From Oscillatoria acuminata PCC 6304 (GTDB lineage: Bacteria; Cyanobacteriota; Cyanobacteriia; Cyanobacteriales; Laspinemataceae): a stretch of DNA of 64,000 nt. Of this stretch, positions 35,272-58,895 are shown one piece after another. The stretch's first letter is position 1. Every line of letters begins with the position of its first letter. Both the position numbers and the translations under genes were made by a program. The stretch is from positions 3,839,227 to 3,903,226 of the forward strand of contig NC_019693.1 of assembly GCF_000317105.1 (NCBI RefSeq), written 5' to 3'. Under the pieces are notes generated by a model that was not told the origin of the DNA, ran no database searches, and worked only from the letters and a program-made list of their open reading frames with translations.

Positions 35272-35943
35272 TTATGCCTCGGGTTCGACTCCTAATGCTC
35301 GTAATTGGGCGGCGAGGGCCTCTGCTCGGTTCCATTCGCGATCGGCCCGTTCCCGTTCCTGTTGCCATGCCTCAAGCAACTCATGGGGCATGAGCAACCG
35401 TTCCCCATTATCCCCGCGATAAAAGGCAATCAGCTTATCTTCTACGGCCAACCGCAACTCTAAGACGGTACTATAATTATCGGCGATCGGCTCATAAACA
35501 AACTCTTTGTTTAAACGATACCCCTGCAACTTTTCCGGTATGCATTCTCCCTTAGGGTCAAATACCCAATATTCCTCAACCTCCAACTGTCCATAAATGA
35601 CTTTCTTAAACTCTAGGTTATAGTCGCGGGTAGCCAAGGAAGTCATCTCAAAAATCACCGAAGGCACGGGCCCTTCTTCCCAAAGTTTATAACTATCCCG
35701 TTCCCCCGGTTCTACATTAAAAATTACCATCACATCCGGGGCAAGGCGGATCTGGGGAAACCCTTCAGAATAGTACATAAACTGCTTTGATAAAACCGTA
35801 ACCTGACGACCGTTTAGGTATTGTCGCAACAGTTCCAAGGTGACAAAAATTGCATAAATATGATCATAAGTTCGGGCCAAAAGGTGCCGGTCTTCGCTGG
35901 GGTAAGTTACCGGATTTTCTTGATGTGGTAAAATTTGAGCCAT
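35272..35943 (-). CDS. Uma2-family (DUF820) endonuclease-like protein, tandem copy 1
   Basis: Uma2 core (PSEDRH/GEPLAESYDH...VIFNVEPG...EVEEYWVFDP) plus C-terminal Arg/Glu-rich coiled-coil tail 'ERERADREWNRAEALAAQLRALGVEPEA'. Confidence 0.8.
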   Translation of the reverse strand: MAQILPHQENPVTYPSEDRHLLARTYDHIYAIFVTLELLRQYLNGRQVTVLSKQFMYYSEGFPQIRLAPDVMVIFNVEPGERDSYKLWEEGPVPSVIFEMTSLATRDYNLEFKKVIYGQLEVEEYWVFDPKGECIPEKLQGYRLNKEFVYEPIADNYSTVLELRLAVEDKLIAFYRGDNGERLLMPHELLEAWQQERERADREWNRAEALAAQLRALGVEPEA

Positions 35944-36150: not shown

Positions 36151-36822
36151 TTATGCATCCGGATCGATTCCTAATGCTCGTAACTTGGCGGCGAGGGCCT
36201 CTGCTCGGTCCCGTTCGCGATCGGCCCGTTCTCGTTCCTGTTGCAATGCCACACGCATCTCCTCGGGCATCAGTAACCGTTCCCCGGTATCCCCCCGATA
36301 AAAGGCAATCAGCTTACCTTCGACGGTTAACTGTAACCCCAAGGCGGTACTATAATTATCAGCGATCGCCTGATACTCTTTATTGTTCAGGCGATACCCC
36401 TGCAACTGTTCTGATATCCACTCTCCCCTCGGGTCAAATAACCAATATTCCTCAACCCCCAACTGTTCATAGAGGGTTTTCTTATGATCCATGTCCTGAT
36501 TGCGGGTACTCGGTGAAGTCATCTCAAAAATCACCCAAGGCACTTGTCCTTCTTCCCAAACCTTATAATTATCCCGTCCCCCCGGTTCCACATTAAAAAT
36601 CACCATCACATCCGGGGCAACCCGTAGCCGGGGATTCCCTTGGCAATAGTACAGAAACTGGTCTCCTAACACCGTCGCCTGACGACCGATCAGGTATTGT
36701 CGCAACACCTCTAGGGTGACAATAATCGCATAGAGATGATCATAACTTTCTGCCAAAGGTTCACCGTCCTCACTGGGGTAAATAACCGGAGTTAGTTGTT
36801 GAATTCGTAGGGTTGCAGTCAT
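36151..36822 (-). CDS. Uma2-family endonuclease-like protein, tandem copy 2
   Basis: Paralog of copies 1 and 3 with the same C-terminal tail '...ERERADRERDRAEALAAKLRALGIDPDA'. The flanking intergenic DNA is duplicated with copy 3. Confidence 0.8.
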   Translation of the reverse strand: MTATLRIQQLTPVIYPSEDGEPLAESYDHLYAIIVTLEVLRQYLIGRQATVLGDQFLYYCQGNPRLRVAPDVMVIFNVEPGGRDNYKVWEEGQVPWVIFEMTSPSTRNQDMDHKKTLYEQLGVEEYWLFDPRGEWISEQLQGYRLNNKEYQAIADNYSTALGLQLTVEGKLIAFYRGDTGERLLMPEEMRVALQQERERADRERDRAEALAAKLRALGIDPDA

Positions 36823-37026: not shown

Positions 37027-37797
37027 TTATGCATCCGGATCGATTCCTAATGCTCGTAACTTGGCGGCGAGGGCCTCTGCTCGGTCCCGTTCCTGTTGCG
37101 CTCGGTCCCGTTCCTGTTGCGATCCTTCCTGTTGCGCCCTTTCTCGTTCCTGTTGCGCCCTTTCTCGTTCCTGTTGCGCCCTTTCTCGTTCCTGTTGCGC
37201 CCTTTCTCGTTCCTGTTGCAATGCCACACGCCACTCCTCGGGCGTCAGTAACCGTTCCCCGGTATCCCCCCGATAAAAGATAATGAGCTTGCCTTCGACG
37301 GTTAACTGTAACCCCAAGGCGGTACTATAATTATCAGCGATCGCCTGATACTCTTTATTGTTCAGGCGATACCCCTGCAACTGTTCCGGTATCCACTCGC
37401 CCCTCGGGTCAAATAACCAATATTCCTCAACCCCCAACTGTTCATAGAAAGCTCTTTTAAACTCCATGTCCTGATTGCGGGTACTCGCTGAAGTCATCTC
37501 AAAAATCACCGAGGGTACTTGTCCTTCTTCCCAAATCTTATAATTATCCCGTCCCCCCGGTTGTACATTAAAAATAACCATCACATCCGGGGTAACTCGC
37601 ATCCGGGGATTCCCTTGGCAATAATACAGAAACTGGTCTCCTAACACCGTCGCCTGACGACCGATCAGGTATTGTCGCAACACCTCTAGGGTGACAAAAA
37701 GCGCATAGAGATGATCATAACTTTCTGCCAAAGGTTCGCCGTCTTCGCTGGGGTAGATAACCGGAGTTTGGGGTTGAATCTCTAGTTTTCCAGTCAT
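37027..37797 (-). CDS. Uma2-family endonuclease-like protein, tandem copy 3 with expanded ERERAQQ repeat tail
   Basis: Same core as copy 2. The C-terminus contains (ERERAQQ)x4 encoded by a 21-bp tandem DNA repeat (37076-37215). Confidence 0.8.
   Translation of the reverse strand: MTGKLEIQPQTPVIYPSEDGEPLAESYDHLYALFVTLEVLRQYLIGRQATVLGDQFLYYCQGNPRMRVTPDVMVIFNVQPGGRDNYKIWEEGQVPSVIFEMTSASTRNQDMEFKRAFYEQLGVEEYWLFDPRGEWIPEQLQGYRLNNKEYQAIADNYSTALGLQLTVEGKLIIFYRGDTGERLLTPEEWRVALQQERERAQQERERAQQERERAQQERERAQQEGSQQERDRAQQERDRAEALAAKLRALGIDPDA
37076..37215. repeat. ~7 tandem copies of a 21-bp unit (CnnTTCyCGTTCCTGTTGCGC) inside Uma2 copy 3
   Basis: Encodes the (ERERAQQ)n tail on the minus strand; in-frame (21 = 7 codons). 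Confidence 0.8.
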
Positions 37798-42319: not shown

Positions 42320-44782
42320 GTGGAATCCACTCAATACGCTGGAAAGCACCGGGCCAAGCACCCCTATTTAATCAAAATATTGTTGTTGGGTTCAATGGGA
42401 ATTTGGCCACTATTTTTAACAGTGGCATTGCCCGTTTTTGCTCAACTGACTCCAGCAGGGACCCCCATTGAAAACCGGGCAACGGGTAGTTTTGAGGACC
42501 CGCAAAATCCGGGGATACCGATTGAAGTTCAATCCAACACGGTCACGATTACCGTGGCGGAAGTTGCGGGAATTACCGTCCAAGCAACCGGAATCACGGA
42601 CGCCGATGGGGACGATCGCATCGACGTGGGGGACCTGCTTTATTTTCAATATCAAGTCACCAATGTGGGAAATGACCCCACTCGCTTTCGCATCCCCAAT
42701 TCGGCGAATATCACCGGACCTGGAACCCTCGCGGGTAATGTCGAAATTAGTACCGATGGGGGTCAAACCTGGATCCAGGTTACGGGAACGGAACTGATCA
42801 CCGAATCGGTCCCGGTGAATGGTAGCATTCAGGTCCGGGTTCCGGTGACAGTCCGTTCTGATGCCGTAGTTGGCAGCGAAATTTTTGTCCAACTGGGGAA
42901 TACCCCAGAGGATGAGCAAAATGTGGAACGGGTGGCGAGTAACCTGGATGTTTATACCGTAGATAACCCTGATGGATCGGTTGATGGGGAAGTGGCCGGA
43001 CCCCCAGTGAATGGCACAAGAGAAGCAAGTGCCACTCAACAAACGACGGTGGCAGCAGTGCCTTTGGCATTGGCGGCCCTGTATAAAACTCATGGGACGC
43101 CGATTGAAGTAAATAATCCGGCGGATCCGTCTGATGATGTGATTACTTATCAATTGGCGTTAGACGTGCGATCGCAACTGCCGCCCGGAGTGACCGGGTT
43201 TGTGCCGGGAGATTTAGCGCCGAATGAACGCTTCCCCATTAATGTCGATGGGAATCTGGTCAACCGGATTCTGATTTCTGACGCGATGCCGGTGGGGACT
43301 CAATTTGTGCTAGATTCGGCAGTTGCACCCCAGGGATGGCAAGTGGTGTTTACCGCAGATGATCCGAACAGTGCCAATGCTTTGCAAGCGAATTGGCGGA
43401 CCGATGTTGCGGCAATTGGCGGAGTTGCCAATGTGCGGCGAGTGGGATTTATCTCCGAAGCTACCATTGCCCAGGGAACTCAGGTGAGTGGATTTGAGTT
43501 TAAAGTGGTCACGAGCAATATTGCGCCGGGGACAACGGCGATCGCCAATATTGCCCAGGTATTTGGGGGGACTGCTGGGAATCCGGACCGCTTGGTGTAT
43601 GACGAATCCGGGGACCAAAATCCTAGTAACTTTAATGATGATGGCACATTACCTGTCCTCGATGCCGATGGAAATCCCGTTGTCTCTTCCGGGGTAGCGA
43701 ATCCGGCAACTGATGGTGTTGACCCCAACAATAGTAATACCGGCGTCGGACCGGGGGGGGAAGCGAATGTGGTTACCCTACCCTTTGCTCCCACGACGAT
43801 TCAAAATGGGCCAACGGGATCACCAGGGGCCGTTGGTCCGACGGATAATAATAATGACTTCTCCAATGTAGTGGTTCCGGTCCCGCCCAATGTACCACCG
43901 GGACAAGCGATCGCCCCTCCTCCGGCCAATTTTGGGAATACGGTGGTCAATCCCACGGGTCAGGCGATCACGATCGCCCCAGTTAACCCCAGCGATCGCG
44001 ACTCGTTACCCGCAGGGACAACGGTTACGATCACCTATGGGGGGCGAACCGTCACCTATGTCTATGACCCTATCACCGGATTTACCACCTCCGATCCGCC
44101 GATTGTGATTCCTGGAGAAGTCTCGCCAGCAGACTATCAGGTGCAGATTCAGTTGCCCAATGCTCAACCGAATACCGCGTATGAGATACCGATCGCTGCC
44201 TTTATCGATACCGATGGCAATGGCAGGTTTGATGAAGGGGAACAAGGGAATATCACCATTAACCGGATTTATACCGGGTTTATCGAGACCACCAAAGAAT
44301 CGCGCATCCTCAAAGGAACGGGACCCGATGTACTGCCGGGACAGGAAACCTTTAGTACCGAGGTAAAAACCCCGTCCCCAGGCAATATCATCGAATATCG
44401 CTTGACTTACAATAACTTTTCCACAGTTGGGGGTCCGGGGAATCTCACCCTAACTGCCAGAAATTTGGTGATTACCGAAGATGGCACGACCTACGACCCG
44501 GTGACCAATCCTGCCGGAAATAATTGGGCGTTAGATACGGATAACCTCGATGAGGATAGCAATCCGACCACGGGAATTGATACCTCTCATGTGGTGGGGT
44601 CTGCGGTGGATTCTACCGGGGGAGAAATCCAATTTTTCCAGGGAAGACCCGCAACGACGCCCACCGGGGAACAAAGCGGAACGACGGTGGAGACGGATGT
44701 TACCCGGTATGTCATCCGTGTGACTCAGGAAATTGCCCCGGGAGAATCGGGAACGTTTACATTTCGCCGCCGGGTGAATTAA
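42320..44782 (+). CDS. Secreted DUF11/CARDB-like repeat-domain protein (surface-cluster gene 1)
   Basis: Signal peptide (cleavage around VFAQ-LT); multiple DUF11-type beta-sandwich repeats (e.g. 'GDLLYFQYQVTNVGNDPTRFRIP', 'GNIIEYRLTYNNFSTVGGPGNLTLTARNLVITEDG'); Gly/Asn/Pro/Thr-rich. An alternative start is the ATG at 42395. Confidence 0.7.
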   Translation: MESTQYAGKHRAKHPYLIKILLLGSMGIWPLFLTVALPVFAQLTPAGTPIENRATGSFEDPQNPGIPIEVQSNTVTITVAEVAGITVQATGITDADGDDRIDVGDLLYFQYQVTNVGNDPTRFRIPNSANITGPGTLAGNVEISTDGGQTWIQVTGTELITESVPVNGSIQVRVPVTVRSDAVVGSEIFVQLGNTPEDEQNVERVASNLDVYTVDNPDGSVDGEVAGPPVNGTREASATQQTTVAAVPLALAALYKTHGTPIEVNNPADPSDDVITYQLALDVRSQLPPGVTGFVPGDLAPNERFPINVDGNLVNRILISDAMPVGTQFVLDSAVAPQGWQVVFTADDPNSANALQANWRTDVAAIGGVANVRRVGFISEATIAQGTQVSGFEFKVVTSNIAPGTTAIANIAQVFGGTAGNPDRLVYDESGDQNPSNFNDDGTLPVLDADGNPVVSSGVANPATDGVDPNNSNTGVGPGGEANVVTLPFAPTTIQNGPTGSPGAVGPTDNNNDFSNVVVPVPPNVPPGQAIAPPPANFGNTVVNPTGQAITIAPVNPSDRDSLPAGTTVTITYGGRTVTYVYDPITGFTTSDPPIVIPGEVSPADYQVQIQLPNAQPNTAYEIPIAAFIDTDGNGRFDEGEQGNITINRIYTGFIETTKESRILKGTGPDVLPGQETFSTEVKTPSPGNIIEYRLTYNNFSTVGGPGNLTLTARNLVITEDGTTYDPVTNPAGNNWALDTDNLDEDSNPTTGIDTSHVVGSAVDSTGGEIQFFQGRPATTPTGEQSGTTVETDVTRYVIRVTQEIAPGESGTFTFRRRVN

Positions 44783-44845: not shown

Positions 44846-45445
44846 ATGCAGGAAAACCCGTTCGTAATTTTAATCATAACTTTGGGCGTGATAGGGAATC
44901 TGTCATTTCCGGGTTTGGCAATGGCATCGATTCCACCCTTGGGGGAGACGGCCAATGCTACCGGGTCCTGTGACATCACCGGGTCCTGTCCCTTTCTCCT
45001 CTCCCAAGGCAACCGGGTGCAAATTCGTCTCCAACTCTATCTACTCAGAACCGTTGAAGATGACCAGGGGAATGTCAATACCGAATGGATAGAACTGCCT
45101 GCTGCTGCATCGGTGCAACCGGAACAGGTCCTGCGCTATACCCTCACCGCAGAAAACCAAACTGCTGAGGATATCCCCAACTTCATCCTCACCCAACCTA
45201 TCCCCGATCCGGTGGTTTATATCCCTGAGTCTTCCGTAATTGATACAGATGCTGAAATTACCTACAGCATCGATAACGGCGAAACCTTTGCTGAGAATCC
45301 CACGGTGGAAGTCACCCTAGAGAATGGACAGGTGGAAACCCAACCGGCACCCCCCGAGACCTATACCCACATCCGTTGGACCTTGACTAATCCCCTGCCA
45401 CCCACTGCAGTTGTAACCGGACAGTTTGAGGTGCGGGTGCAATGA
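44846..45445 (+). CDS. Small secreted single DUF11-like domain protein (surface-cluster gene 2)
   Basis: Signal peptide, then 'VLRYTLTAENQTAEDIP...YSIDNGETF...YTHIRWTLTNPLPPTAVVTGQFEVRV' DUF11-like pattern; stop overlaps the next start (ATGA). Confidence 0.5.
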   Translation: MQENPFVILIITLGVIGNLSFPGLAMASIPPLGETANATGSCDITGSCPFLLSQGNRVQIRLQLYLLRTVEDDQGNVNTEWIELPAAASVQPEQVLRYTLTAENQTAEDIPNFILTQPIPDPVVYIPESSVIDTDAEITYSIDNGETFAENPTVEVTLENGQVETQPAPPETYTHIRWTLTNPLPPTAVVTGQFEVRVQ

Positions 45446-48093
45446 AGCATCAAAACTCACCGAGTGGCAACTCCCAATCCAAATTTAGGACTCGTTCCCT
45501 CGGGTGGGCAGTCACTGCCACCCTTCTGGCGGGAACGTTGGGGACACTATTTATTAAAACCAGTAATTTTTCCCAAGCCTCTGCTCAGGATAACCCCCAA
45601 TGTGTGATTCCCGGATACTTGCTTCAAAATGAAGCAGGCTACAGTTACAGCAGCGATGGTACTAATCAGATTGATGGGGTTTCCAACCAAATTACAGATG
45701 CGGTGGTCGGGGGAGGACCCGTCACTATCAATCCCGGTGGAATTCGGGATGGGGCAAATAATCGCGTTTCCGGTGCCTTTGCTGGTGTACTCGCTGATGA
45801 GTTAATTAAATTGGGATTTACCCAAGCAGAAGCAACTCGGGCGGTGATTGCTGTAACGGTTACTTTGGCGCAGTTGCCCGTTGAGTCAAGTTTCCGGGAA
45901 GTGGCGATCGCCACTCGGACTGCGGTATTCCAAGCAGTTCCTGGCAAAGCATCCGCGATCGCCCAACTGCAACGCCCACAAGCACAAGAAACAGCGATCG
46001 CCCTGACTGCCGAACTCTCCAAATCCATCCTCATCAGCGATGGACTCACCGAGGCAGAAGCAGAAACCGTTACCCAACAACTCATCTCTACCATTGTCGC
46101 AGCAGGAGATAATGCACCCATCGATGACACCTTCCGCGCCGCATTTCAGGCGATGGTTGCTGCCGTCCCCAGTCGCGAAACCCTCCTGCGAGACCTTGCC
46201 GAAGACTTTGTAGAAGAAATTCGCAACCTTCGCCAGGGGGTTCGCAGTGGCATCGAACAAGGGGATGTGCTCTATTTTGATTTCACCCTCAGTAACCCCA
46301 CTGATAGTGCTCTGCGCTTCCAAATTCCAGATGCCAACGCCGTTCAACGAGAAACCACCAATGGCATTGTCCGTGGAGTTAGCTATTCAATGATTGGCAA
46401 TGGTAACGGTGTCTTCCTCGTTCGCGATTGCTTCCCGGAACCGGAACCGGAAGAACCTGGACCCATTGTCATTACTCCGGCACCGGATATCGACCCCTTA
46501 ACGCCAACGGAACCTCCATCGGAACCGCAACCCCCATCGGGACCTCCACCCACAATTACTCCGGCACCAGAGATTCAACCCCAACCCACTCCCACTCCCA
46601 TTCCCACTCCCACTCCTCCGCAACCCGTCACGACCCCCACGGATGTGATTGTCGAACCCGGTGGCGGAGTCCAGATTATCGTTGAGGTGGAAGTTGGACC
46701 TATTCCCCCCGATGGCGGTGGGGTAACGGTCAACATTCCCACCATAGAGACTCCCGAACAACCCCCTACCCAACAAACGGTGATTATTACCCCCACCCTG
46801 CCGGGTACTCCGCGCACAGAAGGACTGGGACGGATTACTGGATGTGCTGGAGAACTCTTACCGGACTACACCGGATTTAGAGTGGGACTCTACCAACCTA
46901 ACCTGGCAGATCCCACCGGAGGGATTCAAGGCGTTGTCCCCCTGACTCCCACGGATATCAGTCGGGGACTCTCGCCTAACCTGGAAAATGCCAACCCCTT
47001 CTTCCTGACTAATGGAGAACAAGGTACTTACAATTTCCTCCTGGATGTCACCCGAGGTCAACTCGATCCGGGACAACAATACATTTTCTTAGTCACTCCC
47101 CCTGGTGGGAGTAACTACGCGGAACGTCGCATCCGCTTGGATATCGGTGCCAACAATAATGGCATCGTTGCCTATACTGCCACCGCCCTGGATGGACGGC
47201 CCCTGAATGTGGTCACTAACAGCACCTCCGCTACGGGGACCATTGATATTCGCGATCGCGATCAAGTCGGATTGAGTTTAGGCACGTTTGACTTAACCAC
47301 CAGTCTGTGCGAAGCGCAGGAAATCCAAATTGAGAAAACCGGCGATCGCATTGCTGCCGAACCCGGCGATACCGTCATCTACCGTCTCGCCATCCGCAAC
47401 CTTGCTAATACTCCCGTTACCGGCATCATCGCCGCTGACTTCCTCCCCCTCGGATTCCAATTCCGCCCCGATTCCGTCCGCGCCGAAATCTCCGGTCAGC
47501 GTATTGGCATCACCTCTAGTCATGATGGCCGTTCCATCACCTTTGATGCCTCCAACGTCACCATTCCTCCCACGGAAGTCCTGAATATTGCTTACGCTGC
47601 ACGCATCACCCCCGATGCCTTGCGTGGCAATGGTCGTAACTCCGCCTTTGCCAATGGTCAGCGTGTCGATACCGGCATCCAAGTTCAAGATGGTCCGGCA
47701 ATTCACTCCCTGCGCATCGCACCGGGTATTCTCTCCGACTGCGGCACCTTAATTGGTCGCGTCTTTGAGGACCTCAACGGCGATGGCGAACAACAACCCG
47801 ATGAACCCGGTATGCCCAATGCGGTGATTTTCCTTGATGATGGCAACCGCATCATCACCGATGAACAAGGGTTGTACTCCGTTTCTAATGTCCTGGGTGG
47901 ATATCGCACCGCTACGTTAGACCTTTCTAGCGTTCCTGGATATACCCTCGCACCCAACGAGTTTGTGAGTGAACGGAATAGTCTATCCCGTCTCGTGCGC
48001 CTCGAACCCGGGGGTATGGCACGGGTGAACTTTGCTGTAACCCCCGCTGCGGAGGAAGATCCTGCCTCCACCGTCGGTCAAGAAGGAGGTTAA
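45442..48093 (+). CDS. Secreted protein with helical N-domain, Pro/Thr-rich linker, DUF11 and SdrD-B/Cna-B-like domains (surface-cluster gene 3)
   Basis: Signal-anchor-like N-terminus; ~60-aa P/T/E-rich linker (PEPEPEEPGP...TPTPIPTPTPP). DUF11 ('GDTVIYRLAIRNLANTPVTGIIAADFLP') and SdrD-B-like ('GRVFEDLNGDGEQQPDEPGMPNAVIFLDDG...DEQGLYSV') domains follow. Confidence 0.65.
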   Translation: MKHQNSPSGNSQSKFRTRSLGWAVTATLLAGTLGTLFIKTSNFSQASAQDNPQCVIPGYLLQNEAGYSYSSDGTNQIDGVSNQITDAVVGGGPVTINPGGIRDGANNRVSGAFAGVLADELIKLGFTQAEATRAVIAVTVTLAQLPVESSFREVAIATRTAVFQAVPGKASAIAQLQRPQAQETAIALTAELSKSILISDGLTEAEAETVTQQLISTIVAAGDNAPIDDTFRAAFQAMVAAVPSRETLLRDLAEDFVEEIRNLRQGVRSGIEQGDVLYFDFTLSNPTDSALRFQIPDANAVQRETTNGIVRGVSYSMIGNGNGVFLVRDCFPEPEPEEPGPIVITPAPDIDPLTPTEPPSEPQPPSGPPPTITPAPEIQPQPTPTPIPTPTPPQPVTTPTDVIVEPGGGVQIIVEVEVGPIPPDGGGVTVNIPTIETPEQPPTQQTVIITPTLPGTPRTEGLGRITGCAGELLPDYTGFRVGLYQPNLADPTGGIQGVVPLTPTDISRGLSPNLENANPFFLTNGEQGTYNFLLDVTRGQLDPGQQYIFLVTPPGGSNYAERRIRLDIGANNNGIVAYTATALDGRPLNVVTNSTSATGTIDIRDRDQVGLSLGTFDLTTSLCEAQEIQIEKTGDRIAAEPGDTVIYRLAIRNLANTPVTGIIAADFLPLGFQFRPDSVRAEISGQRIGITSSHDGRSITFDASNVTIPPTEVLNIAYAARITPDALRGNGRNSAFANGQRVDTGIQVQDGPAIHSLRIAPGILSDCGTLIGRVFEDLNGDGEQQPDEPGMPNAVIFLDDGNRIITDEQGLYSVSNVLGGYRTATLDLSSVPGYTLAPNEFVSERNSLSRLVRLEPGGMARVNFAVTPAAEEDPASTVGQEGG

Positions 48094-48099
48094 TTTAAA

Positions 48100-51000
48100 A
48101 TGCACTTTCAATCTAAATTTTCCCATCTCAGTTTTAATGGTTCCCTCGTTTTACCTGTTGCCGCTTTTCTCTTCCCGTTACCGGGATTCGCTCAGTTGTC
48201 CCCTACTGCCATAACTTTTGGCTCAGGGTCGAGTCTGGTCTCTTCCCCGGAGCAACCTCGGATATTGTTGTCAACAGAGTATCTGCAATTTGCAGGGGCT
48301 CATGAAAAGTTGTCCGAAATTGAAACAACTTCTGGGAATGCCTTCCCTGAAACAGTCCCCGATGCCGCTAATTCGGGAATTGCCTTCGGGGAAACACCCC
48401 CTAACAGATTGTTGTCAACAGAGTATCTGCAATTTGTTGCAGGTTCGGATGAAAAGTTGTCCGAAATTGAGACAACTTCTGGAAATGCCTTCCCTGAAAC
48501 AATCTCCGATGCCTCTGATTCCAGCAATATCTGGGAGGAAACACCCCCTAACAGATTATTGTCAACAGAGCATCTGCAATCTGTTACGGATTCCGATGAA
48601 AAGTTGTCCGAAATTGAGACAACTTCTGGAAATGCCTTCCCTGAAATAGTCGCTGATGTCGCTAATTCGGGAATTGCCTTCGGGGAAAACCCCCCTCGGA
48701 TATTGTTGTTAACAGAGCATCTGCAATCTGTAACAGATTCGGATGAAACCTTGTCCGAAATTCAGATAACCGATCGAGAATTAGGGCCAATTTTCCCGAT
48801 CGCATCCAGTGACCCTCGGATGTTTTTGTCCCCGGAAATCATCCAAAATTTAGGGTTCCTGGAAAGAACAACAAATTTTTGGAATTTCCAGGAATCGTCC
48901 ACTATATCTGAGCTTTCGGATAAAAAAGACCCAAGCAATGTAGCAACATATAGCGTGACAACTGTAGCTATTTTGTTTAATACACCTGAAAATTTGTGCA
49001 AAATGGGGGTTTTTTGCGTTGATCGCCCGGGGGGTGATGTCATAACAAATGTTGTGACAAATGTAGCAGTTACAGACAACAATTTGCTCCAACTTGCCCC
49101 ATCAACTGTACATTCATTTGTAGACACAGAATTATCCCAAGATGCCTATCCAATGAAATCGGCGATATGGGTTGAAAACACTGAATCAACAAGAATTACA
49201 GACATTGTTGACCGACTCACGAACGTAGCGACAGTTAGCAGTCGGGACTCATTCAATTTAGAGATAAATTTGGGTCAGGGGGAAACTTCGCAAAATTCCG
49301 AATTTCAGACAGAAAGCCCCCTTTCCCCCATTGTAGCAGAAACAAATCCAGCGTCAAGAGGGACTGGGGAAAATTTGGAAACTGCCACGGAAGCGATCGC
49401 ACAATCGGGGACAGGAATCCGGATCCTGTCGCCAACCCCCGGGGAAATCTTGGCGGTTCCAGCAACCCCGATTATTGTGCAATTTCCGGAAGGGACCGAA
49501 ATCGAACTCCTGGTAAACGGGAATCCGGTATCCTCCGAGGCAGTCGGACAAACGGAACGGGATAGTAATACAGGGATGGTGACGCAAACCTGGGTTGGGA
49601 TTCCCTTAGAAGCTGGGGAAAATGCGATCGCCATCCGCGTGGTTGGATCAACAGTTAACGAATCTTTGGTCACCGTAGTTGTCCCAGGAGGAGCGGCACA
49701 AATTGCCGTAGAAACAGTTGAGAAAAGAGTGCCTGCCGATGGCCGGTCTATTGTGAATATTCAGGGACGGTTACTGGATGAAAATGGGAAATTAGTCGAA
49801 CGGGATACAGAGATTACCCTTAGTGCCAGTGCGGGAGAATTTATTGGGGAAGACCTGAGTCCCGATCGCCCTGGATTTCAAGTGCTCGTGATTGCCGGGG
49901 AATTTACCGCGCAGTTGCAGTCGCCCTTAGATGCTCAGACCGTCAGAATTCGGGCAGCAACGGATACAGAAACCATTGCAGGGCGATCGCTAGAAGCGTT
50001 TACCCAGATGCAGTTTGATACTTACCTCCGTCCGAGTTTAGTTACTGGGGGAATTAACCTGCGATTTGGACGGCGAGGATTGGATTATTGGGGACGGTTG
50101 CGCGACTTTTTACCCCCGGATGAGAATAATGATTTTAAATTAGATGTCACAGGTGCAGCATTTGCCACGGGAGAGTTAGGGGGATGGTTATTTACGGGAG
50201 CTTATAATAGCGATCGCTCCCTCAATTGTGATTGTAGCGGTAACCGACGCCGCTTATTTTCAGATACGCAATTTACAGAGCAAAATTATCCCCTGTATGG
50301 AGATTCCTCAAGCGTTCAGGCAACAGCACCTTCTAGTGATCATGTGTTCCTGAGATTTGAACGGTCTTCAGCGGAAGAAAATGCTGGATTAGATTACTTT
50401 ATGTGGGGAAATTATGGGACCGGAGAATTTGCTACCGAGTCTCAACAGTTCACTGCCTTAACCCGCGCCTTACAGGGATTTAAAGGCAATTATAACTGGG
50501 GACAATGGCAAGTGAGTGCTTTATTTGCCAACGATGTTCAAGGATTTCAACGGGATGCGATCGCCCCTGATGGCACTAGTGGATTTTACTTCCTCTCTCG
50601 CCGATTAGTCATCCCCGGGAGTGAAAATTTATTTTTAGAACTGGAAGAACTGGGACGTCCGGGAAATATCGTCCGCCGACAACAACTGAACCGAGGGTCT
50701 GATTATGAAATCGACTATGATCGCGGGTCAATCTTGTTTCGTCGTCCTCTTCTGCGAACCGATGTGGTAACCGTTAATGGGGTAGAAACCGTCGTTGCCA
50801 GAAGGATTGTTGCCACCTATCAACATGAAGACTTAGATGGAAATACCAACCTCTGGGGAGGACGAGTTCGCTATAACTTTTCCCGAGATTTTAATACGCC
50901 AGGATGGTTGGGGGCCACCTACATTCGCCAAAATCAAGGCATCCGAGATTTTGAACTTTATGGGGCCGATTTCATGCTCACCTTTGGCAAAACTGCCCCC

Positions 51001-52782
51001 CAAGAGGTGAATGATTATCGAGAAGGGGAAGTGCCGAATTTCAGAACTCCCGTTAGCGGCCAATTTATTGCGGAATACGCCCATTCTACCAACGATTCTG
51101 AACTTTTAGGACTCGTGACGGGGGAGGCGTACCGATTTGAATTAAATGCCATTGGTGGACCTTTTTCCAGTCGCTTATATTATCGGAATACGGATGAAGG
51201 ATTTGCCAATGATGCCACGGTGAGTTTTGTGCCGGGACAAACGCGGTACGGGGCTTTATTAAATAGTCGGTTAACCAGTACGACTCTGTTACAGTTTGCT
51301 TATGACCATGAGAAAAACTTTGGCAATTCTCCCCGTCCGATTAGTGTATTAGACGATTTTTTAACCCCGCGACGAGAAGCGGTTCCAGGAAGGGGAGTCA
51401 ACAACTCGTTAACCACCATTTCTGCCGGATTGCAGCAGACCATTGGACGGGCCAATTTGGGATTAGATTGGGTTTGGCGAAATCGTAAAGATGGGGCAGT
51501 AACCAGTCCTTTAGATGCGACCTCTTCTCAGTTGCGATCGCGCTTTTCTATGCCTCTGACGGATACAATTACGGTGCGGGCGCAAAACGAAATTAACCTT
51601 TTAAAAGAAGAAGATGTCGTTTATCCCGATCGCACTATTTTAGGGTTAGATTGGCGATTAGTTCCCGGAGTCACCCTAGAACTGAATCACGTCTGGTTTA
51701 ACGGGGGACAATATGAGAACAATTCCATTACCAGCGTCAACCTCAATGGGGATTATAACGTTACGGAAGATACCATCGTCACCGGACGCTATTCCTTTAT
51801 TAATGGCGAGACAATGGGGGCCGCATTAGGACTACAACATGGGTGGACAGTCTTCCCTGGATTTAGAGTGAATTTGGCCTATGAGCACGTTTTTGGTTCC
51901 CTGTTCAGTCGCACAGGTTCTGGAAGTCAATTTGATCAACCTTATGCACCGGGACAGAGTGCTGCCGCATTAGGAATCAGAAGCGGGGACAGTTACAGTG
52001 TGGGGTTTGACTATACGGGAAATCCGGACTTTTCTGCCAGTGCCCGATATGAACATCGGTTTTCCAGTGGTGGCAACAATACGGTGATTTCAGCAGCAGC
52101 ATCGGGAAGACTCACTGATTCCTTATCCGTCCTCACCCGCTATCAACAAGCATCGTCATCGAATCCGTTGTTTGATGAGATGGGGGATACGGTGAATTTG
52201 CGAATGGGGTTAGCCTATCGGAATCCTAACAGTGATAAATTTAATGCCTTATTGCGGTATGATTATCGCCAGAATCCAGCCTTGATACCGGATTCGATAT
52301 TATTTGAATCTGGGACGCGATCGCGAGACCATACCTTTGCCTTAGAGACCATTTATGCCCCGAATTGGCGATGGGAATTTTATGGCAAAACGGCCTTAAG
52401 ACAGAGTACCTCATTTCTGGCCAATGATTTAGTCGGCACCAGCTTAGTCTCCTTAAATCAGTTAAGGGCAACCTATCGATTAGGATATCGCTGGGATGTG
52501 ATGGGCGAAGGGCGATGGATCCGGCAAACCAACGCGAATTATGATGAATTGGGAGTGGTAGCAGAGGTGGGATATTATTTGACTCCAGATTTGAGAATCG
52601 GGTTAGGGTACGTCTTCGGCAAAGTCAGCGATCGCGACTTTAATGGCGATCGGTCCGCCTCCGGTCCTTACCTAGGCTTAACCGTCAAATTAAACGAACT
52701 CTGGCCCGGATTCGGACAGGTAATTCCCCCCGCCGCATCCGCAGTAGAAACCCCCATTCAGGAAACCGGAGGTGCAGAATGA
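48100..52782 (+). CDS. Giant secreted protein: signal peptide, 4x ~49-aa tandem repeats, Big-like domain, ~950-aa beta-barrel-like C-terminal region (surface-cluster gene 4)
   Basis: Signal 'VLPVAAFLFPLPGFAQ'; repeats 'LLSTEYLQF...KLSEIETTSGNAFPE'; Ig-like 'ILSPTPGEILAVPATPIIVQFPEG...AIRVVG'. The C-terminal ~950 aa is rich in Gly/Tyr/Asn/Arg/Trp with alternating-hydrophobic strands (LGLDWRL, GRYSF, RVNLAYEH, GLGYVFG), typical of outer-membrane beta-barrels. Confidence 0.6.
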   Translation: MHFQSKFSHLSFNGSLVLPVAAFLFPLPGFAQLSPTAITFGSGSSLVSSPEQPRILLSTEYLQFAGAHEKLSEIETTSGNAFPETVPDAANSGIAFGETPPNRLLSTEYLQFVAGSDEKLSEIETTSGNAFPETISDASDSSNIWEETPPNRLLSTEHLQSVTDSDEKLSEIETTSGNAFPEIVADVANSGIAFGENPPRILLLTEHLQSVTDSDETLSEIQITDRELGPIFPIASSDPRMFLSPEIIQNLGFLERTTNFWNFQESSTISELSDKKDPSNVATYSVTTVAILFNTPENLCKMGVFCVDRPGGDVITNVVTNVAVTDNNLLQLAPSTVHSFVDTELSQDAYPMKSAIWVENTESTRITDIVDRLTNVATVSSRDSFNLEINLGQGETSQNSEFQTESPLSPIVAETNPASRGTGENLETATEAIAQSGTGIRILSPTPGEILAVPATPIIVQFPEGTEIELLVNGNPVSSEAVGQTERDSNTGMVTQTWVGIPLEAGENAIAIRVVGSTVNESLVTVVVPGGAAQIAVETVEKRVPADGRSIVNIQGRLLDENGKLVERDTEITLSASAGEFIGEDLSPDRPGFQVLVIAGEFTAQLQSPLDAQTVRIRAATDTETIAGRSLEAFTQMQFDTYLRPSLVTGGINLRFGRRGLDYWGRLRDFLPPDENNDFKLDVTGAAFATGELGGWLFTGAYNSDRSLNCDCSGNRRRLFSDTQFTEQNYPLYGDSSSVQATAPSSDHVFLRFERSSAEENAGLDYFMWGNYGTGEFATESQQFTALTRALQGFKGNYNWGQWQVSALFANDVQGFQRDAIAPDGTSGFYFLSRRLVIPGSENLFLELEELGRPGNIVRRQQLNRGSDYEIDYDRGSILFRRPLLRTDVVTVNGVETVVARRIVATYQHEDLDGNTNLWGGRVRYNFSRDFNTPGWLGATYIRQNQGIRDFELYGADFMLTFGKTAPQEVNDYREGEVPNFRTPVSGQFIAEYAHSTNDSELLGLVTGEAYRFELNAIGGPFSSRLYYRNTDEGFANDATVSFVPGQTRYGALLNSRLTSTTLLQFAYDHEKNFGNSPRPISVLDDFLTPRREAVPGRGVNNSLTTISAGLQQTIGRANLGLDWVWRNRKDGAVTSPLDATSSQLRSRFSMPLTDTITVRAQNEINLLKEEDVVYPDRTILGLDWRLVPGVTLELNHVWFNGGQYENNSITSVNLNGDYNVTEDTIVTGRYSFINGETMGAALGLQHGWTVFPGFRVNLAYEHVFGSLFSRTGSGSQFDQPYAPGQSAAALGIRSGDSYSVGFDYTGNPDFSASARYEHRFSSGGNNTVISAAASGRLTDSLSVLTRYQQASSSNPLFDEMGDTVNLRMGLAYRNPNSDKFNALLRYDYRQNPALIPDSILFESGTRSRDHTFALETIYAPNWRWEFYGKTALRQSTSFLANDLVGTSLVSLNQLRATYRLGYRWDVMGEGRWIRQTNANYDELGVVAEVGYYLTPDLRIGLGYVFGKVSDRDFNGDRSASGPYLGLTVKLNELWPGFGQVIPPAASAVETPIQETGGAE
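48262..48790 (+). repeat. ~4 tandem copies of a ~147-bp repeat inside the 1560-aa gene
   Basis: Copies begin at 48272, 48416, 48563, 48711 (CAACAGAG(T/C)ATCTGCAAT...), encoding the LLSTEYLQF...SEIETTSGNAFPE protein repeats. Confidence 0.8.
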
Positions 52783-55700
52783 AACCGTTAAAATTATCCG
52801 GGAAATGGCCTCAAGGACTCCTGTTGATTTTGCCCATCATCTTGAGCCTATTTGCTGCACCAGTTGCTCGTTCTGAAGGCAGTCGAGAGTTAGTCTCCCA
52901 AGGGGGCGATCGGCCTTGGTTGGAAGTTAGAGATAATGTCTATATCGAACAATTTCTCCGCTATACCACCATCCAAGTTTCTGTAAATCAGGGAGAGTGG
53001 CTCAATCTGGGGTCTAGTGCAATGGGAATTGGTGATGGAAATATTATTGCCACAGCACCCAACGGCGCTACTATTAACTGTCAGGACCCTCCATTCCTGG
53101 GAACAGGTTTGATTGAAAATAGAAATCAAGAAAACAACGGCCCTGGCACCGGAACCGATGGAAGTATCGGAGTAGGTCTAGGTCCGACAGGGCGATATGA
53201 ACCCTGTGGCAGACAGGTACAGGCCGGTGAACAGGGAATCTGGGAAATAGAATTTGTGCCTCCTAACCGGCCAGGAGGCTTACCAAGTGCAATTGACAAC
53301 CCCGCTGGCAGTTTGAACTGGGTTCAAGCGGCAAATGATTTTGCTACAGCAGCTTGGGACGTGACAGTGCGAACCGATGCTAATAACACCGATACCCAAA
53401 ATGGACGGGTGTTTACGGATCTTCTCGCCCTCAATATGCTGGCCCAGGGGAGAGAACTCAATTCAGAAGTATTTGTGTTAACCACCGATGGATTTATTTA
53501 TAGCACTGACATGAATAGACTGGACCCTTTTGGGTTCGTTTTCTTAGCCAATAATAAGGGATTGCTTGATACCGATTTGAGCCCCCTATATCGCAGTTCT
53601 CCCGGGCTTATAAATGATGGGCCTGGGGGGCCTCCAGCGACAAACCAAAACAATTCTGTACCTCTACAAGCAGCAGGAGTTACCATTCAGCCCCCGGTTC
53701 ACAGAATCTTTTTCAATGAACCCGCTACGGATTTGGAAACCCTGCCGAGTCCGATTTTGAGAACTCCCACCCGACCTGTTGTCAGCGAGTTGGCTTTTAT
53801 TGGCGACATAGAAAATACTACTTTAGAGGGAGTCGGAGGAACTTTTCAGTTTGATAGTTCCATCGAGGGAAGCTACCAAATTGTCATCAGAGATGATGCT
53901 AATAATATTGTCAGAATTTTGCAAAATACTGTAGCAAGCGGTACTAATAACATCACTTGGGATGGCACGAATGAAATTGGTGCTGATTTACCTCCAGGCG
54001 AATATGAATTTGAAATTACCGTCCGTGCCGGTGAATATCATTTCCCTTTATTAGATGTGGAAAATAGCGGGGGTCTCACGTTTACCCTCCGCAATCCGCC
54101 TTTGCCTCTACCCAGTGAAGGACCAGGTACTCCTATATTTAGAGCGGGTACGAATGCAACCACTGCATTCTACGACAACACCAGTTTTACCACAGCCGAT
54201 GGAATATTCGTTGCCATGCCATCGCTAGCGGATGGGAACCCAGGTGCCACAGATCCTGTGTTTGGCACAGGACCCGGGTCGAGCAATCCTCAGCCAACTA
54301 ATTATCATCAGTTTGGTGATGGATTCGGAGATAAAAAAGCCATTGACACCTGGATCTATTTCAGCAGTCAGCCTAAATTTAATACTCTGGTCATCATTGA
54401 TCCGAATGTTACCCTGACTTCAACAAAATCAGTACAACTGCTCACTGATGTCAATGATAATGGTCAAGTAGATCCGGGTGATACTCTCCGATATACTATT
54501 TCCTTAACCAACACAGGGAATAGTGCCGCAACTGGGGTTCAATTAACCGATACCCCGGATGTAAATACAACATTAGTCGTGGGTTCGGTAAACCCGAATC
54601 AAGGTACCGTTACCCTGGGTAATACGCCTGGAAATACAACTGTAGATGTAGCGTTAGGGATGATCGCAGGCAATGGCGGAACGGCTACAGTGACCTTTGA
54701 TGTTACCGTTAATAGTCCGATTCCCAATACAGTTACAGAAATTGCGAACCAAGGAAGAGTCCGTGGCAGCAATTTTCCTCCCATTTTGACCGATGACCCG
54801 ACTACCCAAAATATCCCCAATGACCGTACCACGATTTCCCTCAACAATCCCATCCTTGGGGTCACGAAGCAATTGACGAATGTGGTTAACAATGGGGACG
54901 GCACTCATGATGTGTCCTATACGATCCGAGTCCATAACCTCGGGAATGTGCCGCTCAATAACGTTCAGATTACAGAAGATTTGTTTGGCACCGAGAACAG
55001 CACTTTTGCTGGATCTGCGGCACCCCCGGAGATTATCTCGACTCAACTTGTCCCCGGACCGAACAACGAACCCAATCCTTTAAATACAACCAATCCCAAC
55101 TTTAACGGAAATGCGGATAAAGACTTACTCGCCGGTACTGAAGTCCTTCCCGTGGGAGCAACAGCGGCGATCGCCTTCACCGTTCGGGTAACCCCAGGAA
55201 GGAACTTGGGGGCATACGAAAATAACGCTACGGCATTGGCATCGGGTCCCGGTGGTACTGATGTGACGGATACCTCCACGGATGGAACAAATCCCGACCC
55301 CGATGGGGATGGCGACCCTACGAATGACGATAACCCAACCGAAGTCACCTTCGTCGGTACTCCACAACTGGAGTTACAAAAGCGGATTACCCGCATTAAT
55401 GGGACTGAAGTGGGTCAGTTTGATACTCTTCCCAATTGGCCGACTAACCTTGTGCGAGGAATTACCAATTCGGCGGAAATTCAACCCGGGGATGAAGTGG
55501 AATATACAATATATTTCTTTTCTGCCGGAAGTGCACCGTTAGAGAAGGCAATGGTGTGCGACCCGTTGCAAGATTTTCAAACCTTTCGCACGGATACCTT
55601 TAATGGTCAAAATCCGATAGAAGGAACATTTGGGGCTGAGGTGGGGATTGCATTTGCGTTAAATCCTACTACCAACCTGGATTTACCGACAGCCTATCTG

Positions 55701-55865
55701 CGAAGTGCGAACAGTGCCAGTAACCGAGGCCGGTTTTATCCTTCGGGAACTACAGCACCTCCAGTCTGTCGTCTTCCGAATGTTCGCGGTGCAGTGGTGG
55801 TGGAGATTGGTAACCTGGGGGTGGGTGACTATGGCTTTATCCGCTTCCGCGTTAGAATAGATTGA
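52779..55865 (+). CDS. Secreted multi-DUF11 repeat-domain protein (surface-cluster gene 5)
   Basis: Start overlaps the previous stop (ATGA); signal peptide. Several DUF11 'conserved repeat domains' (e.g. 'VQLLTDVNDNGQVDPGDTLRYTISLTNTGNSAATGVQLTDTP', 'THDVSYTIRVHNLGNVPLNNVQITEDLFG') and an Asp-rich 'DPDGDGDPTNDDNP' linker. Confidence 0.7.
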   Translation: MKPLKLSGKWPQGLLLILPIILSLFAAPVARSEGSRELVSQGGDRPWLEVRDNVYIEQFLRYTTIQVSVNQGEWLNLGSSAMGIGDGNIIATAPNGATINCQDPPFLGTGLIENRNQENNGPGTGTDGSIGVGLGPTGRYEPCGRQVQAGEQGIWEIEFVPPNRPGGLPSAIDNPAGSLNWVQAANDFATAAWDVTVRTDANNTDTQNGRVFTDLLALNMLAQGRELNSEVFVLTTDGFIYSTDMNRLDPFGFVFLANNKGLLDTDLSPLYRSSPGLINDGPGGPPATNQNNSVPLQAAGVTIQPPVHRIFFNEPATDLETLPSPILRTPTRPVVSELAFIGDIENTTLEGVGGTFQFDSSIEGSYQIVIRDDANNIVRILQNTVASGTNNITWDGTNEIGADLPPGEYEFEITVRAGEYHFPLLDVENSGGLTFTLRNPPLPLPSEGPGTPIFRAGTNATTAFYDNTSFTTADGIFVAMPSLADGNPGATDPVFGTGPGSSNPQPTNYHQFGDGFGDKKAIDTWIYFSSQPKFNTLVIIDPNVTLTSTKSVQLLTDVNDNGQVDPGDTLRYTISLTNTGNSAATGVQLTDTPDVNTTLVVGSVNPNQGTVTLGNTPGNTTVDVALGMIAGNGGTATVTFDVTVNSPIPNTVTEIANQGRVRGSNFPPILTDDPTTQNIPNDRTTISLNNPILGVTKQLTNVVNNGDGTHDVSYTIRVHNLGNVPLNNVQITEDLFGTENSTFAGSAAPPEIISTQLVPGPNNEPNPLNTTNPNFNGNADKDLLAGTEVLPVGATAAIAFTVRVTPGRNLGAYENNATALASGPGGTDVTDTSTDGTNPDPDGDGDPTNDDNPTEVTFVGTPQLELQKRITRINGTEVGQFDTLPNWPTNLVRGITNSAEIQPGDEVEYTIYFFSAGSAPLEKAMVCDPLQDFQTFRTDTFNGQNPIEGTFGAEVGIAFALNPTTNLDLPTAYLRSANSASNRGRFYPSGTTAPPVCRLPNVRGAVVVEIGNLGVGDYGFIRFRVRID

Positions 55866-57641: not shown

Positions 57642-58895
57642 ATGCGTCAACTTTTATTAAAGGTGTCAATTGGGATGCTCGTCCTCATCTTGAGTGCGTG
57701 TGGTGGTGAACCGGAGACTCCGGAAGTCGTCGCCCCCGTCGAGCCATCTCCCACGACAACGGAGACTCCAACGGAAACTCCAGAGGAGTCCCCAGAAGCA
57801 GCAGAACAACCCGAATCCCCGGAATTTGAAGAACCTGTGGTGCCTCAGCGCCCGGATCCCACTTCCATTGGGAATTTAATTCCGCCCACCAGTCCAGATG
57901 AGCGAGTGCGGCAACTGGAACAGCAAAGGGCCCAACAAGGTCAGGAAAATCCCTTTGGGGTACTCGATGTCCAGCCGGTGCCGGTCACCCCGACACCGGG
58001 CGCAGAAGTAGCGACTCCTAGAGTTCCCGAATTTCCAGGCCGTGCGGTTCCCAATCTTCCAGAATTGCCCGTGGCGATCGGTCCACAATTACCCCCAGGT
58101 CAAGCAGTCGCCCAAGCTCAACCTTTTCAACCCTTCCCTGGACCGGGAGGAGGAACTGGAACGAGACCCGGAACTCCACCGGGAACTGGCCCTGGAGCCA
58201 GACCGGGAGCGCCCAGTCCTCAAGGACCGCAAATTCCAGACCAGGTTGCCCAAGGGGTTCCCAACCTTCCGGATTTGCCTGTGGGAATTGGCCCTGAACA
58301 ACTCCCTCCAAGACCGCGACCCCCTGCACAGCAAGCGGCGGCTGGTCCACCGGCTCCCCCTCAACCCCCCACGCTTCCGCCTTTAGTGGCGCGAGGGGTG
58401 CCAGGTCTTCCGGAACTGCCCCTCGGAATTGGTCCAGAACAACTGCCTCCGGTGGTCGCCCAGGCCCCTGCGGGTCCCCCTCAACCCCCAACGCTTCCGC
58501 CTTTAGTGGCGCGAGGGGTGCCAGGTCTTCCGGAACTGCCCGTGGGAATTGGTCCAGAACAACTGCCTCCCCCACCGCCACCGCCGATTCCACCACCGCC
58601 CCCTTCTACGGATTTAGCCCAAGGTACGGAAGTGACTGGGGTGATTCGAGCGGGGGGTCAAGTGCAAATTATTGTTAAGGCTCCCAATGAGGCCACTTCG
58701 CGCTATGTGAAGGTAGGCGATCGCATTGCTCTAGGCGAAGTGCTGGTTAAAGAGGTGCAAAATTTAGATTCCGCTGACCCGATTGTGATTTTGGAGCAAA
58801 ACGGCATTGAGGTCGGTAAGGCTCTCGGAGAACAAGAACCGCCAGAGGTTACCCCCGGTGGGGTGAACTTGGCTAATGCTGCATTAGGACGTTAG
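57642..58895 (+). CDS. Proline-rich repeat lipoprotein
   Basis: Lipobox 'LILSAC'. At least 5 copies of 'GVPxLPELPxGIGPEQLPP' encoded partly by a 120-bp tandem DNA repeat; non-repetitive C-terminal ~100 aa domain. Confidence 0.5.
   Translation: MRQLLLKVSIGMLVLILSACGGEPETPEVVAPVEPSPTTTETPTETPEESPEAAEQPESPEFEEPVVPQRPDPTSIGNLIPPTSPDERVRQLEQQRAQQGQENPFGVLDVQPVPVTPTPGAEVATPRVPEFPGRAVPNLPELPVAIGPQLPPGQAVAQAQPFQPFPGPGGGTGTRPGTPPGTGPGARPGAPSPQGPQIPDQVAQGVPNLPDLPVGIGPEQLPPRPRPPAQQAAAGPPAPPQPPTLPPLVARGVPGLPELPLGIGPEQLPPVVAQAPAGPPQPPTLPPLVARGVPGLPELPVGIGPEQLPPPPPPPIPPPPPSTDLAQGTEVTGVIRAGGQVQIIVKAPNEATSRYVKVGDRIALGEVLVKEVQNLDSADPIVILEQNGIEVGKALGEQEPPEVTPGGVNLANAALGR
58350..58570 (+). repeat. Two near-identical 120-bp tandem repeats inside the proline-rich lipoprotein gene
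   Basis: ACGCTTCCGCCTTTAGTGGCGCGAGGGGTGCCAGGTCTTCCGGAACTGCC recurs at 58371 and 58491. Confidence 0.75.

Follow-up and report, generated by a model that had tools for sequence, protein, structure and literature searches.

The locus considered here raises the question of what kind of protein joins tandem repeats and immunoglobulin (Ig)-like domains to a beta-barrel of exceptional size, and what such a protein might do in the envelope of a cyanobacterium. The gene concerned, gene D, lies in a 64,000-nucleotide stretch of Oscillatoria acuminata PCC 6304 (contig NC_019693.1, hereafter the window) and takes fourth place in a closely packed, co-directional series of five genes, A to E, the products of which all have signal peptides. 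Judged by its sequence, D is a typical member of a very large, uncharacterised protein family. The role favoured here, at about even chances, is that the barrel of D is the outer-membrane translocon and anchor of a surface-fibre or adhesin system built on CLIPPER domains. CLIPPER (formerly DUF11) is a CnaA-like isopeptide domain of surface adhesin stalks and, along with CLIPPER_2 and SdrD_B, is one of the isopeptide-stabilised stalk modules of Gram-negative surface proteins (Protein Sci 2025, PMC12617251).

An earlier interpretation made from the letters alone (the sequence-only reading) had described a 1560-residue open reading frame, which is present as described, and much of the anatomy proposed there holds. 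From the N-terminus onwards the protein consists of a signal peptide, four repeats, a variable region, two Ig-like domains, a barrel-like part of ~885–890 amino acids and a tail (Table 1). The N-terminal stretch, MHFQSKFSHLSFNGSLVLPVAAFLFPLPGFA followed by QL, is by eye an apparent Sec signal peptide. Four tandem 49-residue repeats had been claimed, and the LSEI motif at residues 71, 120, 169 and 218, with a spacing of 49 amino acids, gives four copies at the protein level; Tandem Repeats Finder reports 3.5 copies of a 147-nucleotide unit (83% matches, score 678). The repeats are acidic, rich in Ser, Thr and Pro, and confined to Laspinema and close relatives, where copy number varies. The orthologue of Laspinema sp. 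A4 is shorter by exactly 49 amino acids, that is one repeat, and in another relative the copies are degenerate. The repeat module behaves like a variable spacer. A single Ig-like domain had also been proposed; the fold assignment stands but the number does not, as two domains are predicted by AlphaFold2, the second with a sub-threshold match to Big_1 / GH2_C5, and matches to Big_1 / Invasin_D3 recur among homologues. The putative outer-membrane barrel is similarly retained, at a length of about 885 rather than ~950 residues. The C-terminal ending, ...GPYLGLTVKLNELW up to residue 1535 and then 25 further residues, is as it was described. In this tail position the homologues P0126 and P0137 carry an OmpA peptidoglycan-binding domain, and a Burkholderia homologue (P0138) bears the NCBI name 'OmpA family protein', while the window protein itself is without an OmpA domain in a Pfam scan.

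The C-terminal ~885 residues of D are modelled as a membrane barrel of exceptional size. Two AlphaFold2 models were obtained, one of residues 440–1560 from 65 sequences (mean predicted local distance difference test, pLDDT, 73.5; predicted template modelling score, pTM, 0.63) and one of residues 640–1545 from 89 more diverse sequences (mean pLDDT 75.7, pTM 0.71). Both share the two Ig-like sandwiches, an inserted seven-strand sandwich, a conserved loop of low confidence at ~707–740 and ~39 long strands, mostly of 9–20 residues, which run as consecutive hairpins from residue 647 to 1530. The predicted barrel would have about 38 strands, and the true number could be 32–40; with ~38 strands, standard barrel geometry gives an estimated C-alpha diameter of roughly 70 Å. 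D therewith combines a signal peptide with an all-beta meander of long antiparallel strands like those of known membrane barrels. The barrel assignment survives structural comparison, since all structural neighbours found by Foldseek are membrane barrels, with the largest known single-chain barrels at the top: SlpA (3.6e-9), SprA (1.7e-7), followed by LptD and MtrB. The template modelling (TM) scores are only about 0.2, and D is therefore without a close structural relative.

Among 29 diverse members of the family, the barrel part gives weak Pfam matches to outer-membrane barrel families only (DUF2490 in 10, Porin_4 in 5 and OMP_b-brl in 3). On protein D itself, all Pfam and NCBIfam models stay below their cutoffs. 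Searches of PDB sequences with protein D, the family profile and a profile of the inserted sandwich (residues 815–892) return nothing for the barrel or the insert (best E 0.07, to a Lap Ig repeat); only the Ig domains of D are matched, to GH2 C-terminal domains.

Conserved residues are present at several positions of the predicted barrel. The signature YP(L/I/V)YGD lies within the most conserved 25-residue window of the family, in a loop with pLDDT below 50. The inserted sandwich follows roughly the seventh long strand, contains the motifs xGSE and R-x-x-DY with the invariant residues S841, E842, D868 and Y869, and is, as modelled, a candidate plug or gate. In the last predicted strand G1522 is invariant across phyla, while Y1524 and K1530 are found in at least 90% of sequences and are invariant in a mainly cyanobacterial alignment; this strand, GPYLGLTVK, looks like a beta-signal.

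With regards to family breadth, a whole-protein search of a word-indexed database with D gives five matches, consisting of three close orthologues (Laspinema and relatives, 76–91% identity) and two distant relatives of 1878 and 2478 amino acids. The distant relatives align only from residue ~404–458 to the end, and the signal peptide, the repeats and residues 249–440 are therefore lineage-specific. The conserved unit, an Ig-Ig-barrel module, starts at about residue 440 (residues ~440–1535). A profile built from residues 440–1560 of D and the two distant relatives retrieves 1,456 proteins from the word-indexed database, broadly among cyanobacteria at 55–60% identity. When 1.84 billion cluster representatives (50%-identity clusters) are scanned exhaustively, this profile matches at least 4,631 clusters with E <= 1e-3, and 2,303 reach E <= 1e-30; they belong to cyanobacteria, Proteobacteria, Acidobacteriota and Verrucomicrobia. 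Members occur in Nostoc, Anabaena, Fischerella and Tolypothrix, in Thauera, Burkholderia, Roseateles, Curvibacter, Crenothrix and Agitococcus, and also in Acidobacteriota and Verrucomicrobia. At least 560 encoding loci are found when one genome per species is scanned, the best 80 being all cyanobacterial. Full-length matches to the Ig-Ig-barrel module number thousands of proteins; D keeps the invariant residues and shows the family signature AYxS...RLF...YPxYGD as well as the GSE / DY sandwich insert and the G-x-Y...K strand at the end. Measured against characterised systems, the unusual architecture claimed by the sequence-only reading stands; it does not stand in sequence space at large, where D is an ordinary representative of a very large family.

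The names given to family members in databases are generic or contradictory, including "TonB-dependent receptor", "DUF11 domain-containing protein", "OmpA family protein", "SdrD B-like domain-containing protein" and "isopeptide-forming domain-containing fimbrial protein". Pfam has no model for the barrel, and a literature search found no paper describing the barrel family, with a single mention of the protein All3289 as a doubtful "OmpA-like" protein. All3289 is the orthologue of D in Anabaena PCC 7120 (BAB74988.1, identified by accession arithmetic and a length of 1289 amino acids). It is listed among outer-membrane protein candidates, and the only published comment on it proposes that it anchors a large soluble domain in the outer membrane (PMC9705863). 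In the published survey of CLIPPER domains the terms 'barrel' and 'outer membrane' never occur; it mentions no more than an OmpA-like anchor of a model adhesin and DUF11-containing archaeal porins (PMC12617251).

Genes B and C overlap by 4 nucleotides, C ends 6 nucleotides before D, and D and E overlap by 4 nucleotides, which indicates that A to E form one operon, of which D is the sole barrel in a Pfam scan. The product of gene C is a stalk (DUF11 2.3e-5 and SdrD_B 7.8e-5 in Pfam, TIGR01451 2.7e-11), and the C-terminus of gene E, GFIRFRVRID, is common to E-type proteins of other clusters with the consensus GF(V/I)RFRVRID. The same five-gene cluster is present in Anabaena variabilis, while the operon of Anabaena PCC 7120 is apparently all3288–all3292. 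Across 84 related loci, D is immediately preceded by a C-like gene wherever the upstream flank is long enough, E-like genes lie downstream in most, and A and B accompany the C/D pair in about half of cyanobacterial loci. Upstream of the barrel gene, gene A is also kept in loci L003 and L086, and homologues of B adjoin the barrel gene in Anabaena, L003 and the proteobacterial loci L085 and L086.

Regulation of the cluster has one weak lead, a FurC (PerR) binding site predicted by FIMO upstream of all3292, the presumed orthologue of gene A (PMC10406281). In the 1.1-kb region upstream of the operon in the window, scans for promoters and terminators and an Rfam scan gave nothing above chance. A motif of the form G-T-x-I-x-N-x-A-x-x-x-Y...SN-x-V-x-V occurs right after the signal peptide of A-type, C-type and fused C+D proteins (in the window and in L001, L003 and L030; for example TPAGTPIENRATGSFEDP...QSNTVTITV), and could be a common targeting or strand-donor element.

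The relationship between C and D goes further than adjacency. In most lineages outside the cyanobacteria the two are one polypeptide, while in cyanobacteria C is a separate, translationally coupled gene directly upstream. An N-terminal extension of at least 600 amino acids is present in 101 of 135 non-redundant full-length representatives; of the 120 that are extended N-terminally to any degree, 109 have a stretch homologous to the last 283 amino acids of gene C, and this stretch ends a median of 109 amino acids before the Ig/barrel module. C-terminal extensions, some of them OmpA domains, are found in 16 of the 135, and beside some barrel homologues an OmpA domain is encoded in the next gene. 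From this homology, gene C is read as the split-off N-terminal half of an ancestral fused protein. The window locus has a CLIPPER and SdrD_B stalk immediately upstream of the barrel, as other members have it there or fused N-terminally, and this genetic coupling to the stalk appears obligatory. In a metagenomic locus and two proteobacterial loci the order is a small B-like gene, a large A-like gene, the fused C+D gene and a CLIPPER protein, with A and B homology identified by tblastn. This recurrence across phyla indicates that the unit with its B, A and E companions is ancient and phyla-spanning.

Some cyanobacteria have a second, paralogous barrel cluster (L029 / L030 in Symplocastrum, L013 / L079 in Scytonema, L012 / L072 in Tolypothrix and L027 / L058 in Alkalinema). 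This type 2 cluster is without A and B and consists of C'-D' followed by a protein with beta-helix (NosD-like), Big_6 and OmpA parts and a lectin-like protein with CLIPPER.

Table 1. Features of gene D, its operon and other genes of the window (window coordinates).
Feature	Position	Strand	Description
TnpB / IS605 OrfB gene	33041..34243	+	OrfB_IS605, Cas12f1-like TNB and helix-turn-helix (HTH) domains; no adjacent tnpA noticed
Uma2-family putative endonuclease, paralogue 1	35272..35943	-	
Uma2-family putative endonuclease, paralogue 2	36151..36822	-	
Uma2-family putative endonuclease, paralogue 3	37027..37797	-	C-terminal run of QQERERA repeats
TPR + CHAT (caspase-like) protein	38369..41233	-	954 aa; hydrophobic N-terminal segment
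Gene A	42320..44782	+	Secreted, 820 aa, DUF7925 (Pfam E 7.6e-59)
Gene B	44846..45445	+	Small secreted, 199 aa, single CLIPPER-like domain; TIGR01451 E 1.9e-4, below cutoff
Gene C	45442..48093	+	Secreted stalk, 883 aa: Pro-rich linker, CLIPPER (DUF11), C-terminal SdrD_B (CnaB-like)
Gene D	48100..52782	+	ATG start, 1560 aa; longest open reading frame of the region; predicted outer-membrane protein
Predicted Sec signal peptide of D	48100..48192	+	Residues 1-31, ending ...LPGFA before QL
147-nt / 49-aa tandem repeats of D	48264..48770	+	Tandem Repeats Finder and LSEI periodicity
Two Ig-like beta-sandwich domains of D	49420..50019	+	Residues ~441-528 and ~534-640; invasin/intimin Big_1 / GH2-C5 type; conserved module starts here
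Predicted transmembrane beta-barrel region of D	50038..52689	+	Residues ~647-1530, about 39 long strands (AlphaFold2)
Signature YP(L/I/V)YGD of D	50287..50304	+	Residues 730-735; invariant across phyla
Seven-strand beta-sandwich insert in barrel	50542..50775	+	Residues 815-892, ~80 aa (AlphaFold2 secondary structure)
Last predicted strand of D, GPYLGLTVK	52663..52689	+	Residues 1522-1530; beta-signal-like
C-terminal tail of D	52705..52779	+	25 aa, Pro/Gly/Ala-rich
Gene E	52779..55865	+	Secreted, 1028 aa: three DUF11-type stretches (TIGR01451), DUF7507/CLIPPER_2, FlgD_ig
Pro-rich protein	57642..58895	+	417 aa; lipoprotein-like N-terminus (LILSAC)

How these parts might work together can be described as follows. 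An envelope location of D is indicated by the signal peptide, the OmpA fusions and neighbours of homologues and the listing of All3289 among outer-membrane candidates. Domain anatomy, barrel fold class, family breadth, the C/D fusion and the conservation of the gene cluster are observed, whereas we infer topology, outer-membrane location, pore function, cargo identity and surface exposure as follows. After Sec export, the machinery for beta-barrel assembly (BAM) would insert the C-terminal ~885 residues as a single, very large barrel, with the Ig-like domains and the lineage-specific repeats staying at its N-terminal mouth. The wide barrel would pass folded, isopeptide-locked beta-sandwich domains, about 25–30 Å across, over the outer membrane; lumen width matters because isopeptide domains lock on folding. 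It would then retain the stalk at the surface, with C, and probably also the co-encoded A, B and E, as cargo. The insert and the YPxYGD loop may act as gate or cargo-docking elements, and the OmpA modules of relatives may tie the complex to peptidoglycan. The fused form would function much like a classical autotransporter, and the split form of cyanobacteria like a system of the two-partner or usher kind.

Known systems provide partial parallels. The size of the barrel parallels that of SprA, the translocon of type 9 secretion (T9SS; 36 strands, PDB 6H3I / 8GL6), to which a 2026 preprint on counting barrel strands still gives the title of largest known barrel. The two are unrelated by sequence and by Pfam, and D has no NCBIfam match to the SprA family either; SprA has ~2,400 amino acids with large caps, and its system handles cargo with C-terminal sorting domains and depends on PorV and further partners. 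Of these components none occurs here, and no T9SS genes lie nearby. No T9SS is known from cyanobacteria. FimD and PapC resemble the proposed export role of D as outer-membrane barrels that pass folded Ig-like subunits, with an early beta-sandwich plug, which the inserted sandwich of D parallels, flanking soluble sandwiches and an operon with several secreted beta-sandwich proteins. The likeness to CLIPPER adhesins lies in the partners, as CLIPPER, CLIPPER_2 or SdrD_B domains are encoded by C, E and B, and possibly by A. Type V secretion (Va, Vb and Ve) differs in that its barrels have 12–16 strands and export unfolded chains, and relative to intimin the domain order of D, Ig then barrel, is reversed.

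Several points weigh against a translocon. The confidence of the D models is moderate only (mean pLDDT 74–76), and the odd number of strands, 39, means that the model is inexact. Co-variation between the first and last strand, which would speak to closure, is low-powered, with an effective number of sequences (Neff) of 131 for 900 columns; in this mean-field direct coupling analysis of 245 sequences gap artefacts dominate and adjacent hairpins lie within background. Translocation is argued from barrel size and gene context only, A and B are non-obligatory since they are missing from about half of cyanobacterial clusters, and the CLIPPER partners could be periplasmic instead of surface-exposed. 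The location of the Chlamydia DUF11 protein OmcB has itself been debated.

The foremost competing explanation, unlikely yet deserving weight, is that D is a passive outer-membrane anchor or tether in the manner of Deinococcus SlpA or OmpA, and possibly also a large diffusion pore. It would then link the outer membrane with peptidoglycan, or with a CLIPPER scaffold of periplasmic or S-layer-like kind, and would translocate no protein. SlpA is the best structural match of D, OmpA peptidoglycan-binding domains are fused to or adjoin homologues, and the sole published comment on All3289 proposes an anchor. Against this, known anchors need 8–16 strands, and ~38 strands together with a conserved insert and an invariant loop seem excessive. 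In addition, no SLH domain is detected in D or the 29 diverse members and the window protein has no OmpA domain of its own, whereas several large secreted proteins are encoded in the cluster that would otherwise have no way through the outer membrane. SlpA of D. radiodurans (30 strands, PDB 7ZGX / 8AGD) is trimeric with an N-terminal SLH domain and coiled coil, while D has neither of these and instead contains Ig-like domains, more strands, an inserted sandwich and a CLIPPER partner.

A divergent chaperone-usher system, in which D is the pilus usher and A, B and E are pilins joined by donor-strand exchange, is considerably less probable. For all the functional parallels with FimD, neither D nor the 29 members match Usher (PF00577), PapC_N or PapC_C, and no PapD-like chaperone is matched in genes A, B, C and E or in the called genes of L001, L003, L030, L085 and L086. 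The structural score of FimD is no better than that of generic porins, ~39 strands are predicted as opposed to 24, and the partners appear to have complete CnaA/CnaB-type domains, not strand-deficient pilin folds; the usher identity is rejected.

The other established barrel families fail likewise, on domains absent from D and from the 29 relatives. Omp85 / TpsB proteins such as BamA and FhaC are rejected with no match to Omp85 (PF01103) or POTRA, D having far more strands than 16, and LptD is rejected with no LptD barrel (PF04453) accompanied by an OstA / LptD_N beta-jellyroll. An autotransporter or intimin-type barrel is rejected with no match to Autotransporter (PF03797) or IAT_beta (PF11924), only the Ig-like domains resembling intimin/invasin passenger domains. 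Because the defining domains are absent throughout, D belongs to none of these families, in agreement with the sequence-only reading, which had set it apart from ushers, LptD and TpsB/BamA-type transporters.

There is only a slight chance that D is a soluble or secreted all-beta repeat protein which AlphaFold2 has rendered as long hairpins, with no membrane barrel at all. Model confidence is moderate and closure of the barrel is putative. Hydrophobic alternation is seen in 25 of 39 strands and does not discriminate, because the soluble Ig domains alternate as strongly. Nevertheless, all structural neighbours are membrane barrels, the weak Pfam matches are restricted to outer-membrane barrel families, the last strand is conserved and beta-signal-like, and homologues have OmpA fusions. 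Furthermore, no soluble repeat family, homology to which the sequence-only reading had named as fatal to its barrel, matches D in Pfam or PDB sequence searches.

A TonB-dependent receptor, an energised importer of nutrients in which an N-terminal plug accompanies a 22-strand barrel, is hardly credible despite being the NCBI/UniRef name of many cyanobacterial orthologues, given that TonB_dep_Rec (PF00593) is not matched in D at E <= 0.1, that neither it, Plug (PF07715) nor CarboxypepD-TBDT is matched in the 29 members at E <= 0.01 (the latter two being absent from D as well, as is any NCBIfam model of TonB-dependent transporters), that ~39 strands are predicted and preceded by two Ig-like sandwiches in place of a plug, a domain the sequence-only reading had raised, and that the adhesin-like context is without tonB, exbBD or ABC uptake genes. 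The label, as judged by these domain searches, is probably a propagated misannotation.

Other genes of the window lie outside the operon. The CHAT-TPR gene is divergent from it across the 1.1-kb intergenic region, and was rejected as a component of the system because the Anabaena cluster does not have it as a conserved neighbour. The three Uma2 genes are tandem paralogues; L003 and L086 also have Uma2 genes close to the barrel cluster, which is probably coincidental. The Pro-rich protein downstream has repeat units of the form ...VARGVPGLPELP(L/V)GIGPEQLPP... and no Pfam match.

For the biology of the family, a predicted outer-membrane barrel coupled to an adhesin stalk is an architecture that is unusual among characterised systems. 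If D is a translocon, it would provide a so-far unnamed route by which isopeptide-locked adhesin stalks reach the surface of diderm bacteria, including Anabaena (All3289), Burkholderia, Thauera and Acidobacteriota, and would join SprA as the second giant single-chain barrel through which folded proteins can pass. A broader proposal, tentative and on balance doubtful, is that the family represents a new pathway, found across phyla, by which diderm bacteria secrete and assemble folded surface fibres with isopeptide stabilisation (CLIPPER / CnaB) at the outer membrane, with a ~38-strand translocon gated by an internal beta-sandwich. Were this true, it would be the Gram-negative counterpart of sortase-assembled pili, with a single-chain barrel equal to or larger than SprA (36 strands). 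The Anabaena operon makes the proposal testable in a tractable organism. Even conservatively, a widespread misannotation as "TonB-dependent receptor" is corrected, and many CLIPPER / DUF11 proteins gain their missing outer-membrane component.

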